Of a stretch of 64,000 bases of DNA, positions 1,919 to 23,912 are shown piece after piece; positions within the stretch are counted from its first letter, which is position 1; every line of letters starts with the position of its first letter. Origin of the DNA: Escherichia coli 042 (GTDB lineage Bacteria; Pseudomonadota; Gammaproteobacteria; Enterobacterales; Enterobacteriaceae). The translations under genes were made by a program, and so were the position numbers. Below the pieces are notes generated by a model. That model saw nothing but the letters and a program-made list of their open reading frames with translations, had not been told where the DNA came from and did no database searches. Location of the stretch: assembly GCF_000027125.1 (NCBI RefSeq), contig NC_017626.1, one strand, 5' to 3'.

Positions 1919-3277
1919 TTAGCCTCCGTTGCGTTTTTGCAGTAATTCCTGATGGCGACGTTTTTCGCCAATCATCACAACAATCAACAAGATAACCGCC
2001 AGAATGCTGCCGCCAATCATTACCATAAAGCCGCCATCCCAGCCGAAGAAGTCCACGGTGTAGCCAACAATCGCGCTCGCCGCCACCGAACCGCCCAGGT
2101 AACCAAACAGCCCGGTAAAGCCCGCTGCCGTACCTGCCGCTTTTTTCGGTGCCAGTTCCAGCGCATGCAGACCGATCAACATCACAGGACCGTAAATCAG
2201 GAAGCCGATAACAATCATACAGATCATATCGACGTTCGGATTGCCCGCCGGGTTCATCCAGTAAACGATAGTCGCGATGGTCACCAGTGTCATAAAGAAG
2301 ACGCCGGTGGCCCCACGGTTACCGCGGAAGACTTTGTCCGACATCCAGCCGCACAGCAGGGTGCCCGGAATGCCCGCATACTCATAGAAGAAGTAGGCCC
2401 AGGAGGATTTATCCAGCGCGAAGTGTTTCACCTCTTTCAGATAAGTCGGTGACCAGTCGAGGATGCCGTAACGCAGCAGATAAACGAACACGTTGGCGAT
2501 AGCGATGTACCACAGCAGTTTGTTCGGCAGCACGTACTGCATGAAGATTTGCTTCGCAGTCAGCTCCTGTTCCGCTTTTTCGTTATAGTCGTCCGGATAA
2601 TCATTTTTGTACTCTTCGATCGGCGGCAGGCCACAGGATTGCGGGGTATCGCGCATCATCGCAAAGGCGAACAGTGCCACCAGAATGGCGCAGAATGCGG
2701 GCATATAGAGCGCGGCGTGCCAGTCATTGAACCAGGCCATCCCCAGCAGGAACAGCAGCGGCGGAATACCACCACCGACGTTGTGCGCACAGTTCCATAC
2801 TGACACAATGCCGCCACGTTCTTTCTGCGACCACCAGTGCACCATAGTACGACCGCACGGCGGCCATCCCATCCCCTGGAACCAACCGCAGAGGAACAGC
2901 AGCACAAACATCACCGCAATGCTCGACGTCGCCCAGGGCACAAAGCCCATAAAAAGCATCACCGCCGCCGCCAGAATCAAACCTGCGGGCAGGAAAACGC
3001 GCGGATTCGAGCGATCCGACACCGAGCCCATGATGAATTTCGAAAATCCATAAGCAATCGAGATCCCCGAAAGGGCAAAACCTAAATCACCGCGTGAGAA
3101 GCCCTGCTCGACCAGATAAGGCATAGCGAGCGCAAAGTTCTTACGAACCAAATAGTAAGCAGCATAGCCAAAGAATATCCCCAGGAAAATTTGCCAGCGC
3201 AATCGACGATAAGTCGGATCGATCTCCGCGGCAGGTAAGCGCGCTTTGTGTGGCGCTGGTTTAAAAATACTCAACAT
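1919..3277 (-). CDS. glpT: glycerol-3-phosphate transporter (MFS)
   Basis: 452-aa ORF recognised as GlpT, 4 bp upstream of glpQ (glpTQ operon). Confidence 0.95.
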
Positions 3278-3384
3278 TGATAGCCTCCGTGGCCCGTGGT
3301 CTTATTTATGATTAACAGCCTGATTCAGTGGGAGAACCTGCCGTTTCTTGAGTTGCCGCGATGTTAAGAAAACATTCATAAATT

Positions 3385-3408
3385 AAATGTGAATTACCGC
3401 ACACATTA
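3385..3408. promoter_or_regulatory. CRP-like binding site (TGTGA-N6-GCACA)
   Basis: Sequence aaaTGTGAattaccGCACAcatta resembles the CRP consensus TGTGA-N6-TCACA. Confidence 0.4.
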
Positions 3409-3425
3409 TTAAATACGATGGGTTA

Positions 3426-3495
3426 AATGTTCAGAATGACGCATGAAATCACGTTTCACTTTCGAATTATGAGCGAATATGCGCGAAATCAAACA
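3426..3495. promoter_or_regulatory. GlpR operator-like tandem half-sites upstream of glpA
   Basis: Repeated TTCGAA / GCGAA / CGCGAAAT motifs resembling GlpR operator half-sites, just upstream of the glpA start. Confidence 0.35.
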
Positions 3496-3549
3496 ATTCA
3501 TGTTTTTACTATGGCTAAATGGTAAAAAACGAACTTCAGAGGGATAACA

Positions 3550-11107: not shown

Positions 11108-12316
11108 TCAGGCTGTCGCCTGAATCATTTCGGTGGGTTCCTGCTTCAACGAGCGGCCTGACTGCACCATCTCTCCACAGGCAAGAACGGCGTGCCCCGC
11201 CGCTAAAATGTTACGAGCGCCATTTACATCGGCGTTCGCTGTATATCCACATACCTGGCATCTGAATTGACTTTGTGACAGGCGATTTTCTTTCGCAGTA
11301 TGACCACAGCACGCGCAACGCTGGCTTGTGTACGCTGGCGGAACAGCAAGCAACTGACCGCCACTCCAGAGCTGCTTGTACTCAAGCTGGCGGCGCATTT
11401 CATACCAGCCCTGATCCAGTATCGAACGGTTTAAACCTGATTTTGCCCGGACATTGCGCCCCGGCTGGCTGAGCGTACCCGCTGCTGACTTTGACATGTT
11501 GCTGACCTTCAAATCCTCAATGACTATCATTGCGTGGTTTTTGCTGACGGTCGTTGTGACTTTGTGAAGGTAGTCCCTGCGGATATTTGCGATACGGGAA
11601 TGCAGTCGCTGTATTTTGCGTTTCTGCTTCTGCCAGTTGTTGCTGAATTTGACCCTGCGGCTTAACTGTCGCTGAAGTCTCGCCAGCTTCTTCTGGTTTT
11701 TCTGAAAACTGTTTACAGGCTCAAAGACTGTGCCATCTGACAGCGTGGCGAGTTTAGCCACGCCAGCATCCAGCCCGACCATTGATGCTGAAGGGTGAAC
11801 CGGAGTTGATACTTCACTTTCTGTCTGAATACTGATGTACCACTTACCGCAGGACTGGCTGACAGTGACATTTTTTACAACACCCGTGACCTGACGGCTG
11901 TTCCGGTAGCGCATCCAGCCCAGTTTCGGCAGAAAAATACGGCTGTTTTCCTGATCGAGCTTAACGCCCTGCGGATAGCGGAATGCATCATTCTGTCCCC
12001 GCTTTTTGAATCGGGGAAAAGCAGCCCGATTCTGGAAGAAGTTTTTGTAAGCCCGCTCAAGGTCTTTCAGTGACTGTTGCAATGGCTGTGAGGGCGAATC
12101 TTTAAGCCATTGCGTTTCAGTGGCGTTTTTCCACTCAACCAGCCAGGAAGCCATTTTCCCGTAAGGGATGTATTTATTACCGGCCTCATGATTCTCATTC
12201 TGAAGCGCCAGAGCGCGATTGAAAACGAAACGACATGCGCCTGCGAAGCGCCTCATTTCACACTCCTGTTGACCACCTGGTCTTAACTGGAATTTAAATG
12301 CCTGTAATCGTTTCAC
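11108..12316 (-). CDS. tnpB: TnpB (OrfB) RuvC-like RNA-guided nuclease of the IS200/IS605 family
   Basis: 402 aa with RuvC-I GLDAGV, RuvC-II IVIEDL, Ruv[12 protein letters not shown] and a zinc finger CACCGH...CQVCG. Confidence 0.9.
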
Positions 12317-12323
12317 AGGTCAA

Positions 12324-12929
12324 ATGATACTTTGGTCTATGAAAAAAGAAACCGATATCCGGCGTGGAAGGCATTGTGTTTTCCTGATGCATGTTCACCT
12401 GGTCTTTGTCACCAAATACCGACGCCAGATTTTTGACCATGACGCGACAGAAAAACTACGCACTTACTTTTCAAATGTATGTGCTGATTTTGAAGCTGAA
12501 CTGGTTGAAATGGATGGCGAACCAGATCACGTCCATTTGTTAATTAACTATCCTCCCAAACTGGCGATATCCAGTCTGGTAAACAGCCTCAAAGGCGTAT
12601 CGGGTAGGTTACTGCGACGAGATCGACCAGATATTGCAGTCAGGTATTACTACAAAGGCGTTTTGTGGAGTCCTGGCTATTTTGCCAGTAGCTGCGGAGG
12701 TGCGCCAATATCCGTCATCCGCCAATACATTGAACAACAGCAAACACCTGGTCAGGTGGAAAACCGCGCCTTATATCCCCGCCCTGAAGGACGGGGTTTT
12801 ACAGCGCACTGGATAAAGTCATGGACTCAACAACCTCAATCCAGCCATGCTCACTGGCGATGTCCTGGCCGTTTAACCAACGGCGCAGCATATTCAGTGC
12901 CATCATTGCGCACACTTCCTGACGGATAG
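12324..12929 (+). CDS. tnpA: IS200-type Y1 (HUH) transposase TnpA; annotated ORF is abnormally long at the 3' end
   Basis: HUH motif HVHLL and the C-terminal WSPGYFASSCGGAPISVIRQYIEQ motif. The ORF reads past the terminal hairpin into the yfaY-antisense flank (201 aa against a typical 140-155 aa). Confidence 0.75.
   Translation: MILWSMKKETDIRRGRHCVFLMHVHLVFVTKYRRQIFDHDATEKLRTYFSNVCADFEAELVEMDGEPDHVHLLINYPPKLAISSLVNSLKGVSGRLLRRDRPDIAVRYYYKGVLWSPGYFASSCGGAPISVIRQYIEQQQTPGQVENRALYPRPEGRGFTAHWIKSWTQQPQSSHAHWRCPGRLTNGAAYSVPSLRTLPDG
12777..12796 (+). repeat. IS terminal imperfect palindrome (tnpA-proximal end)
   Basis: CCCCG-CCCTGAAGGA-CGGGG, sharing the GCCCTGAAG loop with the hairpin at 11073-11094. 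Confidence 0.55.
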
Positions 12930-14649: not shown

Positions 14650-14927
14650 TTTCCCCTCTCCCACAAGCAATAAATCAAAATTCCCAAAGCTGCGGGATTG
14701 TACTGCCTGGCACAGAGGATTCAATGAGCGAAAAAAGGGATCTAGTCACTTATTGTAACTAAATACTTCTTAAATAATTAAACGCCGAAAAAATAAACAC
14801 ACTTTACCGATACACACAAAAATAATAATAAGTGCAGTTATCATCGCAAAAGAGATTACTGTCACTTTCACATATTTCTGAGTTACCGTATTCTCATGGT
14901 TTCTTTTTATTTATAAGGAATATCCCC

Positions 14928-15353: not shown

Positions 15354-15361
15354 TAATGATG

Positions 15362-15381
15362 ACAGCCATTACTGGCTGTCA
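15362..15381. terminator. putative bidirectional hairpin between convergent nudI and ais
   Basis: GACAGCCA-TTAC-TGGCTGTC, an 8-bp stem. Confidence 0.4.
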
Positions 15382-15391
15382 GATTGAAAAT

Positions 15392-15994
15392 TTAGTGGTT
15401 AACGAATTCCCCATCCAGATAAACTTTGCCTTTTTCCACATGCATGACTAAACCATCCAGATAATCAGGTTTAAATGTCGCATCACGCTTATCTTTAGCA
15501 ATATATGTCAGGCAATGATTATGGGTGAAAATAACGATATTTTTATCAGGCGCTTTGCTTTGTAAGTCCTTAATTGCACTATAAATCTCATTACCGCACT
15601 GAAGAAGTCGTTTATCTACCGTCAGCTTTTTACCCGCTGAAAACCAGGTCGCCGACTGAATGGTCCGGACGGTATTACTGGAATAAAGATCGAAATCAGG
15701 GATATCAGCACTAAAAGCGTTGCCCAGTTCACGGGCATCCTGGGTACCTTTGACCGTAATACCTGTTTTATCTGACAAGCATTGATTGGTTGAACGATCG
15801 CAACGTTCAGCATGGCGAAACAAAACGACAACCGGATGCTGCTGTGCCAGTCTGGCCAGCGTTTTATTGTCGATACGTGGCAAACCATTGCTACTCCAGG
15901 CGGCATGAGTACCCAGTCCGGCAATTGCAGCGAGCGCCAGTAAAATGATGAAATATTTTTTTGACTTCAACGAAGAGCGGCAAAAAGCTAACAC
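15392..15994 (-). CDS. ais: Ais/PmrG histidine-phosphatase-family protein (lipopolysaccharide core phosphatase)
   Basis: Recognised as Ais; start taken at the GTG giving (M)[14 protein letters not shown], 200 aa. Confidence 0.85.
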
Positions 15995-16186
15995 GTAAAC
16001 TCCACCTATAGACAAGCGCAACCAGACAATTACCGTGAAATTGAGCGACATTTCTGGCGATAATTAGCAGTTGGTGTAATATTAAAAATCCTGCGATGCC
16101 GGCAAAATGCCTCAAAATTTTGCCAAATGCAAAGCCTAAATAAGAAAAAATATAAAAATTTCAATATTTACGTCTAATATTAGTTT

Positions 16187-16203
16187 CTTAAGGTTAAGTT
16201 AAT
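16187..16203 (+). promoter_or_regulatory. PmrA (BasR) box upstream of arnB
   Basis: CTTAAG-GTTAA-GTTAAT direct repeat (consensus YTTAAK-N5-YTTAAK), about 80 bp upstream of the arnB ATG. Confidence 0.65.
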
Positions 16204-16283
16204 ATTCTATCCTTAAAATTTTGCTCCAAATGGCAAAATATACACAACACTCTTTATAGCAAATATAAGTGGACAGGTATTCA

Positions 16284-17441
16284 ATGGCGGAAGGAAAAGC
16301 AATGTCAGAATTTTTGCCTTTTTCGCGACCAGCAATGGGCGTGGAGGAACTCGCTGCAGTTAAAGAGGTTCTCGAATCCGGTTGGATCACAACCGGTCCG
16401 AAGAATCAGGCGCTTGAACAAGCCTTTTGCCAGTTGACGGGAAATCAGCATGCCATCGCGGTCAGTTCAGCCACCGCCGGAATGCATATCACGCTAATGG
16501 CGTTGGAAATTGGCAAGGGCGATGAAGTGATTACGCCTTCCCTGACCTGGGTTTCAACCCTCAATATGATTTCCTTGTTGGGTGCAACGCCGGTAATGGT
16601 GGATGTCGACCACGATACGCTGATGGTCACGCCTGAAGCGATCGAGTCAGCCATTACGCCACGCACTAAAGCCATCATTCCGGTGCATTATGCCGGTGCG
16701 CCAGCAGATATTGACGCCATTCGCGCCATTGGCGAACGTTACGGCATCGCAGTTATCGAAGATGCTGCCCATGCCGTCGGTACGTATTACAAAGGGCGAC
16801 ATATTGGCACAAAAGGTACCGCTATTTTTTCGTTTCACGCCATCAAAAATATTACCTGTGCGGAAGGTGGCCTGATTGTTACAGATAATGAAAACCTTGC
16901 CCGCCAGCTACGGATGCTGAAATTTCACGGTCTGGGTGTCGATGCCTATGACAGACAAACCTGGGGCCGTGCACCGCAAGCTGAAGTCTTAACACCGGGC
17001 TATAAGTACAATCTGACCGATATTAACGCCGCGATTGCCCTGACACAGTTAGCAAAATTAGAGCACCTCAACACCCGTCGGCGCGAAATTGCCCAGCAAT
17101 ATCAGCAAGCACTGGCAGCTCTCCCCTTTCAGCCATTAAGCCTTCCCGCCTGGCCGCACGTTCACGCCTGGCATCTGTTTATTATTCGTGTCGATGAACA
17201 ACGTTGTGGTATCAGTCGCGATGCGTTGATGGAAGCGTTAAAAGAAAGAGGTATTGGTACCGGGTTACATTTCCGCGCCGCTCACACACAAAAATATTAT
17301 CGCGAGCGTTTTCCCACGCTGTCGTTACCGAATACCGAATGGAATAGCGAACGCATCTGTTCGTTGCCGCTGTTCCCGGATATGACCACCGCCGATGCCG
17401 ACCGCGTCATCACAGCCCTTCAGCAACTCGCAGGACAATAA
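16284..17441 (+). CDS. arnB: UDP-4-amino-4-deoxy-L-arabinose aminotransferase
   Basis: DegT/ArnB PLP aminotransferase fold; start at [10 protein letters not shown], 385 aa. Confidence 0.93.
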
Positions 17442-18412
<971 letters not shown>

Positions 18413-18413
<1 letters not shown>

Positions 18414-20395
18414 TGAAAACCGTCGTTTTTGCCTACCACGATATGGGATGCCTCGGTATTGAAGCCCTGCTGGCTGCCGGTTACGAAATTAGCGCCATTT
18501 TTACCCATACCGATAATCCCGGTGAAAAAGCCTTTTATGGTTCGGTGGCTCGTCTGGCGGCGGAAAGAGGCATTCCGGTTTATGCGCCGGATAACGTTAA
18601 TCATCCGCTGTGGGTGGAACGTATTGCCCAACTCTCACCAGAGGTGATTTTCTCTTTTTATTATCGCCATCTTATTTGCGACGAGATTTTGCAGCTCGCT
18701 CCCGCAGGTGCATTTAATCTGCATGGTTCGCTGTTACCAAAATATCGTGGTCGCGCGCCGCTGAACTGGGTGCTGGTGAACGGTGAAACGGAAACTGGCG
18801 TTACATTGCACCGAATGGTGAAACGTGCCGATGCCGGGGCCATTGTGGCGCAACTGCGCATTGCCATTGCGCCAGACGATATCGCCATTACGCTGCATCA
18901 TAAGTTATGTCATGCCGCGCGCCAGCTACTGGAGCAGACATTACCCACCATTAAACACGGTAATATTCTGGAAATCGCCCAGCGCGAAAACGAAGCCACC
19001 TGTTTTGGTCGCAGAACACCGGAAGACAGTTTCCTCGAATGGCATAAACCGGCATCCGTGCTGCACAACATGGTGCGTGCCGTTGCCGATCCGTGGCCGG
19101 GTGCCTTCAGCTATGTTGGTAATCAGAAATTTACCGTCTGGTCGTCACGCGTGCATTCTCATGCGCCTGCAGCACAGCCGGGGAGCGTGATTTCTGTAGC
19201 GCCACTGCTGATTGCCTGTGGCGATGGCGCGCTGGAAATCGTCACCGGACAGGCGGGCGACGGCATTACTATGCAGGGCTCGCAATTAGCGCAGACGCTG
19301 GGCCTGGTGCAAGGTTCACGCTTGAATAGCCAGCCTGCCTGCACCGCCCGACGCCGTACCCGGGTACTCATCCTCGGGGTGAATGGCTTTATTGGCAACC
19401 ATCTGACAGAACGCCTGCTGCGCGAAGATCATTATGAAGTTTACGGTCTGGATATTGGCAGCGATGCGATAAGCCGTTTTCTGAATCATCCGCATTTTCA
19501 CTTTGTCGAAGGCGATATCAGTATTCATTCCGAATGGATTGAGTATCACGTCAAAAAATGTGATGTCGTCTTGCCGCTGGTGGCGATAGCCACGCCGATT
19601 GAATATACCCGCAACCCACTGCGCGTATTTGAACTCGATTTTGAAGAGAATCTACGCATTATCCGCTACTGCGTGAAGTACCGTAAGCGAATCATCTTCC
19701 CGTCGACTTCAGAAGTTTATGGGATGTGTAGCGATAAATACTTCGATGAGGACCATTCTAATTTAATCGTCGGCCCGGTGAATAAACCACGCTGGATTTA
19801 TTCGGTGTCTAAACAATTACTTGATCGAGTGATCTGGGCCTATGGCGAAAAAGAGGGTTTACAGTTCACCCTCTTCCGCCCGTTTAACTGGATGGGGCCA
19901 CGACTGGATAACCTTAATGCAGCGCGAATTGGCAGCTCCCGCGCTATTACGCAACTCATTCTCAATCTGGTAGAAGGTTCACCGATTAAGCTGATTGATG
20001 GCGGAAAACAAAAACGCTGCTTTACTGATATTCGCGATGGTATCGAGGCGTTATACCGCATCATCGAAAATGCGGGAAATCGCTGCGACGGCGAAATTAT
20101 CAACATTGGCAATCCTGATAACGAAGCGAGCATTGAGGAACTGGGCGAGATGCTGCTGGCGAGCTTCGAAAAACATCCGCTGCGCCATCACTTCCCACCG
20201 TTTGCGGGCTTTCGCGTTGTCGAAAGTAGCAGCTACTACGGCAAAGGATATCAGGACGTAGAGCATCGTAAACCAAGCATCCGCAATGCCCGCCGCTGCC
20301 TGGACTGGGAGCCGAAAATTGATATGCAGGAAACCATCGACGAAACGCTGGATTTCTTCCTGCGCACCGTTGATCTTACGGATAAACCATCATGA
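18413..20395 (+). CDS. arnA: bifunctional UDP-glucuronic acid decarboxylase / UDP-L-Ara4N formyltransferase
   Basis: 660 aa; N-terminal formyltransferase domain and C-terminal SDR domain ([10 protein letters not shown]). Confidence 0.95.
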
Positions 20396-21282
20396 CCAAA
20401 GTAGGCTTACGCATTGATGTCGATACCTTTCGTGGCACCCGTGAAGGCGTGCCGCGTCTGCTGGAAATCTTGAGTAAGCATAATATTCAGGCCAGCATTT
20501 TTTTCAGCGTCGGCCCGGACAATATGGGCCGCCATCTCTGGCGACTGGTGAAGCCACAGTTTTTGTGGAAGATGCTGCGCTCAAACGCGGCATCGCTTTA
20601 TGGCTGGGATATTTTACTGGCAGGTACGGCCTGGCCAGGTAAAGAGATTGGTCATGCCAATGCCGATATCATTCGTGAAGCGGCTAAACACCACGAAGTC
20701 GGCCTGCACGCCTGGGATCACCATGCCTGGCAAGCCCATAGCGGTAACTGGGATCGGCAAACAATGGTCGACGATATCGCACGCGGCCTTCGCACCCTGG
20801 AAGAAATTATCGGCCAACCGGTAACTTGCTCCGCAGCCGCTGGCTGGCGTGCCGACCAGCAGGTGATCGAAGCAAAAGAAGCGTTCCATTTGCGCTACAA
20901 CAGCGATTGTCGTGGAGCGATGCCGTTTCGTCCATTGCTCGAATCAGGAAAACCCGGTACTGCGCAAATTCCGGTGACCTTACCCACCTGGGATGAAGTG
21001 ATTGGTCGGGATGTGAAATCAGAAGATTTTAACGGTTGGTTACTCAACCGCATCCTGCGAGATAAAGGCACGCCGGTTTATACCATTCATGCAGAAGTTG
21101 AAGGCTGCGCTTATCAGCATAATTTTGTGGATCTCCTGAAACGGGCAGCCCAGGAAGGCGTGACATTTTGCCCTTTAAGCGAACTGTTATCAGGGACGTT
21201 ACCACTCGGACAAGTTGTTCGCGGAAATATTGCCGGACGTGAAGGCTGGCTGGGTTGCCAACAAATTGCGGGTAGTCGCTGA
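20392..21282 (+). CDS. arnD: 4-deoxy-4-formamido-L-arabinose-phosphoundecaprenol deformylase
   Basis: 296 aa, polysaccharide-deacetylase fold; ATGA overlap with arnA. Confidence 0.93.
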
Positions 21283-22934
21283 TGAAATCGGTACGTTACC
21301 TTATCGGCCTCTTCGCGTTTATTGCCTGCTATTACCTGTTACCGATCAGCACGCGTCTGCTATGGCAACCCGATGAAACGCGTTATGCGGAAATCAGTCG
21401 AGAAATGCTGGCATCCGGCGACTGGATTGTGCCCCATTTGTTAGGGTTACGTTATTTCGAAAAACCCATTGCCGGATACTGGATTAACAGCATTGGGCAA
21501 TGGCTATTTGGCGCGAATAACTTTGGTGTGCGGGCAGGCGTTATCTTTGCGACCCTGTTAACTGCCGCGCTGGTGACCTGGTTTACTCTGCGCTTATGGC
21601 GCGATAAACGTCTGGCATTACTCGCCGCAGTGATTTACCTCTCATTGTTCATTGTCTATGCCATCGGCACTTATGCCGTGCTCGATCCGTTTATTGCCTT
21701 CTGGCTGGTGGCGGGAATGTGCAGCTTCTGGCTGGCAATGCAGGCACAGACGTGGAAAGGCAAAAGCGCAGGATTTTTACTGCTGGGAATCACCTGCGGC
21801 ATGGGGGTGATGACCAAAGGTTTTCTCGCCCTTGCCGTGCCGGTATTAAGCGTGCTGCCATGGGTGGCGATGCAAAAACGCTGGAAAGATCTCTTTATTT
21901 ACGGCTGGCTGGCGGTCATCAGTTGCGTACTGACGGTTCTCCCCTGGGGACTGGCGATAGCGCAGCGGGAGCCTGACTTCTGGCACTATTTTTTCTGGGT
22001 TGAGCATATTCAACGCTTTGCACTGGATGATGCCCAACATAGAGCTCCGTTCTGGTACTACTTGCCGGTCATCATTGCCGGTAGCCTGCCGTGGCTGGGA
22101 TTACTCCCCGGAGCACTGTACGCAGGCTGGAAAAACCGCAAGCATTCCGCAACCGTCTATTTGTTGAGCTGGACGATAATGCCGCTGCTGTTTTTCTCCG
22201 TCGCTAAAGGCAAATTGCCCACCTATATTCTTTCCTGCTTTGCACCTCTGGCAATGCTGATGGCGCATTACGCTTTGCTGGCAGCAAAAAATAATCCTCT
22301 GGCGTTGCGGATTAATGGCTGGATTAACATCGCTTTTGGCGTCACTGGCATTATTGCTACGTTTGTGGTCTCCCCCTGGGGACCTATGAGCACGCCGGTG
22401 TGGCAAACCTTCGAGAGCTATAAAGTCTTCTGTGCATGGTCGATTTTTTCGCTATGGGCATTTTTCGGCTGGTACACCTTAACAAACGTCGAAAAGACCT
22501 GGTATTTTGCCGCACTTTGCCCGCTGGGGCTGGCGTTGCTGGTAGGATTTTCAATTCCTGACAGAGTCATGGAAGGAAAACATCCGCAATTTTTTGTCGA
22601 GATGACACAAGAATCACTGCAGCCAAGCCGCTATATTCTTACTGACAGCGTGGGCGTTGCCGCAGGTCTGGCATGGAGCCTGCAACGCGATGACATCATC
22701 ATGTATCGTCAGACAGGTGAGTTGAAATACGGCCTTAATTATCCGGATGCGAAAGGGAAATTTGTCAGCGGTGATGAGTTTGCAAACTGGCTTAATCAAC
22801 ATCGTCAGGAGGGGATTATTACACTCGTGCTTTCGGTTGACCGCGATGAAGATATCAACAGTCTCGCCATTCCGCCCGCAGATGCCATCGATCGTCAGGA
22901 GCGTCTGGTGCTGATTCAGTATCGGCCCAAATGA
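21282..22934 (+). CDS. arnT: undecaprenyl-phosphate-alpha-L-Ara4N transferase
   Basis: 550-aa polytopic membrane protein recognised as ArnT. Confidence 0.93.
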
Positions 22935-23266
22935 TCTGGCTAACATTAGTCTTTGCCAGCTTGCTTAGCGTTGCCGGGCAGTTGTGTCAGAAACAAGCAA
23001 CCTGCTTTGTGGCGATAAACATACGGCGCAAACATATCGTGCAGTGGCTGGGACTGGCGCTGGCTTGTCTTGGCCTTGCCATGGTGCTCTGGCTGCTGGT
23101 CTTGCAGAACGTACCGGTAGGCATTGCCTACCCGATGTTAAGTCTGAATTTTGTCTGGGTGACGCTGGCTGCAGTAAAACTGTGGCACGAGCCGGTATCA
23201 CTGCGTCACTGGTGTGGGGTGGCGTTCATTATTGGCGGCATTGTGATCCTCGGGAGTACGGTGTAA
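22931..23266 (+). CDS. arnE: Ara4N-phosphoundecaprenol flippase subunit ArnE
   Basis: 111 aa, SMR-like four-helix membrane protein. Confidence 0.9.
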
Positions 23267-23652
23267 TGGGCCTGATGTGGGGATTATTCAGCGTCATTAT
23301 TGCCTCAGCTGCGCAATTAAGCCTGGGTTATGCGGCGAGTCATCTACCGCCGATGACGCACTTATGGGATTTTATCGCGGCGCTGTTAGCTTTTGGCCTG
23401 GATGCCCGGATACTGTTACTCGGGCTGCTGGGTTATCTGCTTTCCGTTTTTTGTTGGTATAAAACGCTACATAAACTTGCGTTAAGCAAAGCCTATGCCT
23501 TGCTCAGTATGAGCTATGTGCTGGTATGGATTGCATCAATGATACTTCCCGGCTGGGAAGGAACTTTTTCGCTGAAGGCACTACTGGGAGTTGCTTGTAT
23601 TATGAGCGGGTTGATGTTGATTTTCCTGCCCACGACAAAACAACGTTACTGA
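23266..23652 (+). CDS. arnF: Ara4N-phosphoundecaprenol flippase subunit ArnF
   Basis: ATG at 23266 overlapping the arnE stop (TAATG); 128 aa starting [17 protein letters not shown]. Confidence 0.88.
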
Positions 23653-23912
23653 GTTTTCCCTGCCGCTGTACACTGCCGTTCCCACTCATCGGGGCTATAA
23701 CTGCTTGCCGAGAGGACTTTCACCGTATGCAGCTTTTCACGATTAATACAATAAAGCGCATTCTGCAAAGGTGAGAGTAAATCCCCCACTTTCACGGCGA
23801 AGTCACTCTTCACTTCGGCGATCATTTTTATCGCGCCGCCAGCATCGCAGAGCATAAGTACATGTCTGTTATCTTGTTTATTGCAGCACGATTTTTTGAC
23901 CAGCCATTCCAT
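23646..23912 (-). CDS. pmrD: signal-transduction connector protein PmrD
   Basis: Start taken at [26 protein letters not shown], 88 aa; convergent with arnF. Confidence 0.88.

Follow-up and report, generated by a model that had tools for sequence, protein, structure and literature searches.

The ais and arnB genes of Escherichia coli are read in opposite directions from one AT-rich spacer, and the question raised by this locus is which signal in the spacer switches on the arn polymyxin-resistance genes and whether that same signal also serves ais. We addressed it in a stretch of 64,000 nucleotides, hereafter the window, in which bases 15390-16700 are 100% identical to strain Ecol_316 and 98.5% identical to K-12, and belong to the E. 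coli chromosome; this segment is present in 5418 of 5426 complete E. coli genomes. Gene coordinates (Table 1) are those of the RefSeq annotation moved onto window positions. The ais-arnB spacer measures 289 bp from the ais GTG at 15994 to an ATG at 16284, or 307 bp when counted to ATG 16302, and its G+C content is 33% against 51.6% over the whole window. An earlier note, made from the letters alone, had described a shared region of 290 bp, in agreement with the shorter of these spacers, and had delimited the control region as 16052-16283; the left edge of that interval corresponds to the longest open reading frame (ATG 16051) and had to be moved, the annotated ais start being the GTG, from which homology to other Ais proteins begins at residue 1. 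A scan of 15900-16400 against Rfam at E <= 1 gave no RNA family in either the ais or the arnB leader. Elsewhere in the window, 11108-12749 carries an IS200/IS605-family tnpB and a truncated tnpA between yfaV and yfaY, at the place where K-12 has rhmD and yfaX (rhmR).

Table 1. Features of the ais-arn locus, in window positions
Feature	Position	Strand	Remarks
Hairpin terminator between convergent ais and nudI	15360-15381	-	9-pair stem
ais (pmrG) CDS	15392-15994	-	GTG start, 200 aa; RefSeq annotation
ais transcription start	16097	-	dRNA-seq MG1655 2365723(-), mapped
ais -10 hexamer CATTTT	16104-16109	-	-12 to -7 of mapped start
ais -35-like hexamer TTTGCA	16128-16133	-	-36 to -31; 18-nt spacer to -10
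PmrA/BasR box CTTAAGGTTAAGTTAAT	16187-16203	+	CTTAAG-GTTAA-GTTAAT, between ais and arnB
Box half-site 1 CTTAAG	16187-16192	+	followed by 5-bp spacer GTTAA
Box half-site 2 GTTAAT	16198-16203	+	
arnB -10 hexamer TAAAAT	16214-16219	+	10 nt past box
arnB transcription start (A)	16228	+	dRNA-seq MG1655 2365854(+), mapped
arnB 5' untranslated leader, 74 nt	16228-16301	+	includes AAGGA 16291-16295
arnB CDS	16302-17441	+	379 aa; RefSeq PGAP start
arnC	17445-18413	+	RefSeq annotation
arnA	18413-20395	+	RefSeq annotation
arnD	20392-21282	+	RefSeq annotation
arnT	21282-22934	+	RefSeq annotation
arnE	22931-23266	+	RefSeq annotation
arnF	23266-23652	+	RefSeq annotation
pmrD	23646-23912	-	RefSeq annotation

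The signal proposed in the earlier note was a good match to the PmrA/BasR direct repeat, two hexamers with 5-bp spacing. We confirmed its exact position on the + strand, and the match proved to be perfect to the published form of the box, with half-site 1 CTTAAG, half-site 2 XTTAAT and a 5-bp spacer (PMC3973317); the arn promoter of EPEC has been reported to contain the same 17-mer (PMC10729948). Compared with the loose consensus YTTAAK-N5-YTTAAK, the box has a single mismatch, the G that opens the second hexamer, and this loose pattern with 1 mismatch is not enriched in the 64-kb window (5 matches vs 2.9 expected). The pattern CTTAAK-N5-NTTAAK matches once in the 64 kb, both strands included, at the box itself (0.10 expected). 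Since the window-wide count for the loose consensus was not significant, we turned to orthology-based statistics, and it is from the orthologous arnB upstream sequences that the box draws its significance. A second sequence in the window, TATTTAAGAAGTATTTAGT at 14758-14776 (-) in the yfaZ-nudI spacer, weakly matches both the PmrA-type (1 mismatch) and the PhoP-type (2 mismatches) pattern and is probably an AT-rich chance occurrence.

A scan for ArnB with one genome per species yielded 80 Enterobacterales loci, and a relaxed box, YTTAAK-N5-NNTAAN, was sought within 400 nt upstream of arnB in 81 sequences. The arnB strand carried it in 77 of the 81 and the opposite strand in 5, and shuffled upstream sequences carried it in 2.5 +/- 1.5 cases (maximum 7). 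When 76 unique sequences were anchored on the box, TA at nucleotides 11-12 and T at nucleotide 16 after it were near-invariant; outside the box, strong conservation was limited to this TAnnnT -10 element, which follows after a fixed 10-nt gap. Across lineages half-site 1 hardly changes (CTTAAK), and half-site 2 varies by lineage: GTTAAT in E. coli, GTTAAC in E. albertii, ATTAAC in the Citrobacter freundii group, TTTAAT in Salmonella and CCTAAG in Klebsiella and Enterobacter. The greater steadiness of half-site 1 fits the published identification of the first half-site as the high-affinity one (PMC3973317). The distance from the box to the ATG is 115-126 nt in Escherichia, Salmonella and Citrobacter and ~160-185 nt in Klebsiella, most Enterobacter and Kosakonia. 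Four lineages, E. coli, E. albertii, Citrobacter sp. R56 and S. diarizonae, are the only ones with ais beside arnB; the box is kept in genera where ais is not a neighbour and is therefore a feature of arnB, independent of ais. Within E. coli, the segment from the box to the start site is found at >=95% identity in 5410 of 5426 genomes.

Some lineages carry additional elements. In Salmonella and Citrobacter an extra CTTAAK half-site begins 8 bp upstream of the box (loci L004-L012 and L017; for example ~2870-2905 of L017 and ~2860-2895 of L010), as in CTTAAT-TT-CTTAATGTTAATTTAAT; the E. coli equivalent is degenerate (ATTAGT). Two Phytobacter loci have two full boxes upstream of arnB, 32 bp apart, and five Buttiauxella loci have a second, perfect box, CTTAATTTAACCTTAAT, 53-179 bp farther upstream, which possibly serves a divergent gene.

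The position of the box relative to the mapped transcription start bears directly on how it works. A re-analysis of MG1655 dRNA-seq data (GSE215300) gave primary starts at 2365854(+) for arnB, 2365723(-) for ais and 2099734(-) for ugd, each seen only under antibiotic stress (PMC12987492). We transferred them to the window with an offset of 2349626; the spacer contains no indels relative to MG1655 and 5 substitutions, none inside any element. The box occupies -41 to -25 relative to the arnB start, which itself falls 8 nt past TAAAAT, at the long end of the usual range. The arnB promoter has no TTGACA-like -35, and the box occupies its place. This is a class II, "-35-replacing" geometry, as in the PmrA activation complex seen by cryo-EM on the Klebsiella pbgP box, in which the box replaces the -35 and PmrA contacts sigma region 4, beta and beta' (PMC10570014). 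A generic sigma-70 -35/-10 scan misses both mapped promoters, those of arnB and ais. Two further readings of the region were discarded: a 9-codon upstream open reading frame (ATG 16230) is not conserved, its Salmonella counterpart being ATG CGT TAA, and the TGGCA motifs do not have the spacing of a sigma-54 promoter.

The arrangement can be compared with several known promoters. The Salmonella enterica pmrG-pbgP (pmrH) region has orthologous genes in the same divergent arrangement. In S. diarizonae the box, CTTAATGTTAATTTAAT, lies 115 nt from the arnB ATG, a distance identical to that in E. coli, with the same 10-nt gap to a -10 (TAGGGT) and with the ais -10 and -35 blocks conserved. Salmonella differs in half-site 2 (TTTAAT instead of GTTAAT), in the extra CTTAAT half-site mentioned above and in the stretch from the ais promoter to the box, which is 10 bp shorter. 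The original footprinting on the Salmonella pmrG-pbgP region was reportedly done by Wosten and Groisman in 1999. In Klebsiella pneumoniae, box1 of pbgP (CTTAATATTATCCTAAG) precedes the same operon with head-to-tail hexamers and a 5-bp spacer, as in E. coli, replaces the -35 and is followed after 10 nt by the -10 TACATT; this box is also the one for which a PmrA-DNA crystal structure (PDB 4S05) and the cryo-EM activation complex are available (PMC10570014). Unlike in E. coli, half-site 2 is CCTAAG, ais is not adjacent to arnB and ~171 nt separate the box from the start codon, since a proximal PhoP-dependent promoter and a PhoP box, both absent from E. coli, lie in between (PMC2565834). The E. 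coli ugd promoter (CTTAATATTAACTTAAT, 10 nt, TATTCT, start) shares the architecture of arnB and was induced in the same dRNA-seq, although both its half-sites are perfect, its discriminator is 6 nt rather than 8 nt and no second regulon member is transcribed divergently from it. Promoters with a PhoB pho box (e.g., pstS) likewise replace the -35 by a direct repeat of 11-bp period, and the PhoB site, stated to lie at -41 to -25 (PMC10570014), coincides with the position of the arnB box relative to the mapped start; the regulator is different, as is its recognition sequence, CTGTCA versus the TTAA core of the PmrA box.

PmrA belongs to the OmpR/PhoB family and binds its hexamers head-to-tail as an activated dimer (PMC10570014). 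Binding to a PmrA box in vitro has been demonstrated with PmrA from both Klebsiella and Salmonella, using the Klebsiella box (PMC2565834, PMC3973317, PMC10570014). In the literature searched we found no BasR footprint on an E. coli arnB fragment, and the only electrophoretic mobility shift assay, on a 60-mer, was with QseB (PMC10729948). In MG1655, both Fe and pH 5.8 induce a P_arnB-gfp reporter, and the response to pH 5.8 requires pmrA, pmrD and phoP (bioRxiv 10.1101/2020.05.05.080051), and Arn expression depends on BasRS (PMC10962826). The earlier note had regarded a lack of PmrA-dependent induction from this fragment as fatal to its proposal; the published pmrA-dependent reporter in effect put this to the test and the reading survived it, with annotation, comparative data, mapped starts (PMC12987492) and reporter all in agreement.

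We are highly confident of a model in which a PmrA-P dimer on 16187-16203 replaces the -35 and drives arnBCADTEF, with ais co-induced, most likely from the same box. Its sequence, position, conservation, -10 spacing and start-site agreement come from this analysis, and the binding, the structural mechanism and the pmrA-dependent induction come from the literature. According to this model, Fe3+, Zn2+ or mildly acidic conditions would stimulate BasS/PmrB, or PmrD would protect PmrA-P after PhoPQ activation; the PmrA-P dimer would then bind CTTAAG and GTTAAT head-to-tail, touch sigma region 4, beta and beta' of RNA polymerase and, together with the -10, promote sigma-70 transcription from A16228. 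The resulting 74-nt leader and seven translationally coupled genes would lead to the addition of 4-amino-arabinose to lipid A and hence to polymyxin resistance, and ais would be read the opposite way from its own weak promoter, starting at 16097. The arnB control region is thus a textbook PmrA/BasR switch, already known and ordinary, and current understanding is unchanged by these results. In enterobacteria, polymyxin/colistin resistance arises from the chromosome mainly through the arn operon, and the box is the meeting point of PmrAB, PhoPQ-PmrD and QseBC signals; what the analysis adds to the annotation is an evidence-backed map of the box, both -10s, both starts and corrected start codons.

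A different role for PmrA was proposed from work in atypical EPEC (PMC10729948, 2023), namely that PmrA on the box represses arn by occluding RNA polymerase and that the real activation comes from its paralogue QseB once PmrB has phosphorylated it. QseB-P shifts a 60-mer that equals window 16167-16226, and in a pmrA qseC double mutant arnB and eptA are up and the polymyxin MIC is 16-fold higher (PMC10729948). However, these mutant phenotypes are explained equally well if QseB-P replaces PmrA at the same repeat, and induction of the MG1655 reporter at pH 5.8 needs pmrA (bioRxiv 10.1101/2020.05.05.080051). A constitutive basR allele moreover leads to heavily modified lipid A (PMC10962826), cryo-EM shows PmrA bound to the orthologous box as part of an activation complex (PMC10570014), and the activator-type geometry from box to -10 is conserved in 76 sequences. 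We consequently regard repression by PmrA as very improbable; activator geometry and pmrA-dependent reporter argue against it as the main mode, leaving room for QseB at the repeat. Still less credible, and close to being dismissed, is the notion that the repeat is a functionless chance match in an AT-rich spacer or that PhoP controls arnB directly. The near-chance count of the loose pattern with 1 mismatch (5 vs 2.9) and the 33% G+C of the spacer would suit a chance origin, but the comparative data already contradict it, with the box in 77 of 81 sequences, its strand bias and its fixed spacing to the -10, and the mapped arnB start agrees with the geometry of the box. As for PhoP, its box, (T/G)GTTTA-N5-(T/G)GTTTA, is absent from 15995-16301 at <=2 mismatches, and the E. 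coli pbgP promoter has been described as containing a PmrA box and no PhoP box (PMC2565834).

On the other side of the spacer, the earlier note correctly had ais transcribed divergently from the shared region, the two mapped starts, 16097 (-) and 16228 (+), being 131 bp apart, whereas the box occupies an activating (-35) position for arnB only. In a five-way alignment of the spacer the conserved blocks are the ais -10, the ais -35, the box and the arnB ribosome-binding region, with AAAATGCCT (ais -10) and GCAAA (ais -35) invariant. The interval -41 to -25 of the ais start reads TAGGCTTTGCATTTGGC and contains no PmrA repeat, so that a class II arrangement is not seen there, and the sole box has its centre at -98. 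Four diverged lineages have 83, 83, 83 and 73 bp between the ais -10 and the box, values that are equal or one helical turn apart, a pattern that would be compatible, for four sequences, with a phase-dependent long-range effect. The core promoter TTTGCA-18 nt-CATTTT is itself invariant from Escherichia to Salmonella. Several other candidates on this side were rejected. The minus-strand TAGACG-16-TATATT (16176..16149), a hit of the generic sigma-70 scan, does not qualify as the ais promoter, the mapped start 16097 and the conserved blocks being elsewhere; of the TTTTGCC/GGCAAAA repeats on either side of the box, those upstream of it are the ais -35 and -10 blocks and not a separate operator; and TTTAAGGCATTTT on the ais strand is no PmrA half-site, E. 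coli having TTTGAG and the block being the ais -10.

Our literature search on the pmrG/ais promoter gave no match, and E. coli pbgP, pmrC and pmrG mRNAs have been handled and measured as PmrA-activated, in low Mg2+ versus Fe3+ (PMC3140997). Most likely, ais is co-induced through the same box, 98 bp upstream of its start, by a route that we infer. One tentative version, which we consider rather doubtful, has one box act by two mechanisms: class II for arnB and, for ais, from a distance, as an upstream site locked in helical phase. The centre of the box relative to the ais start is -98 in Escherichia, as in Citrobacter R56, and -88 in Salmonella, and from there it would work by making contacts from upstream or by removing H-NS from the AT-rich DNA of the spacer. 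The 83, 83, 83 and 73 bp spacing is the only hint of such helical phasing. It is also conceivable, if on the unlikely side, that the box serves arnB alone and that ais is co-induced otherwise, through an undetected weak PmrA site, relief of the AT-rich spacer from H-NS silencing, supercoiling by divergent transcription or some indirect regulator. ais possesses a conserved -35 and -10 of its own and a separate start, nothing like a PmrA repeat occurs at -41 to -23, the box centre is far from that start, dozens of genera keep the box with no ais beside arnB, and the spacer, at 33% G+C, is listed as an H-NS-bound "promoter island" (PMC3661553). Against this separation, the spacing between the ais -10 and the box is held despite poorly conserved intervening sequence and although the arnB side often has indels; the starts of ais, arnB and ugd arise under the same conditions (PMC12987492); and pmrG is treated as PmrA-activated in E. 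coli (PMC3140997). Co-induction of ais through the shared box thus remains our preferred reading.

The distance between the box and arnB depends on the start codon chosen, for which public annotations differ: NC_000913.3 has a protein of 385 aa (equivalent to ATG 16284) and RefSeq PGAP one of 379 aa (ATG 16302). The two codons are in frame, 18 nt apart. ATG 16302 and the AAGGA that precedes it (Shine-Dalgarno, 16291-16295) are universal among the 81 sequences compared, whereas ATG 16284 is kept in only 5 of them, those nearest E. coli, and the matching codon is a stop in many genera. From this pattern of conservation, ATG 16302 is likely the true arnB start. The separation of about 80 bp between box and arnB given in the earlier note thus holds for the NC_000913.3 start (80 bp) and becomes 98 bp for the conserved one.

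Downstream, the seven arn genes lie on the same strand in canonical order with spacings of +3, -1, -4, -1, -4 and -1 nt. arnB and arnC are separated by a 3-nt gap; arnC/A (TAATG), arnD/T (TGATG) and arnE/F (TAATG) overlap by 1 nt, and arnA/D and arnT/E (both ATGA) by 4 nt. Every junction from arnC to arnF is therefore an overlap, as had been claimed, with the correction that arnD/T is TGATG and not TAATG. Terminator-like sites inside the operon are at chance level (9 vs 11 +/- 3.9), which together with the coupled arnBCADTEF order and the annotation bears out the proposal of a single polymyxin-resistance operon. At its far end, the convergent arnF and pmrD share 7 nt at their 3' ends (23646-23652), so there is no space for a terminator between them.

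Two insertions alter the locus in natural isolates. In E. coli MB06232, from seawater (region 2788-3510 of locus L086), an IS1A ends a few bases before arnB; homology to the window restarts at 16293, 9 nt before ATG 16302, and the strain is without nudI, ais and the entire arnB promoter, including the box. In E. coli EC5931, from human blood, an IS1 lies in the ais-arnB spacer (1700-2520 of locus L084), and its 9-bp target duplication, CTTAAGGTT, is the first half of the PmrA box (window 16187-16195). The full box stays on the arnB side and ais retains the duplicated half alone; the insertion may also affect arn expression, and it provides a natural case bearing on whether ais needs the full box.
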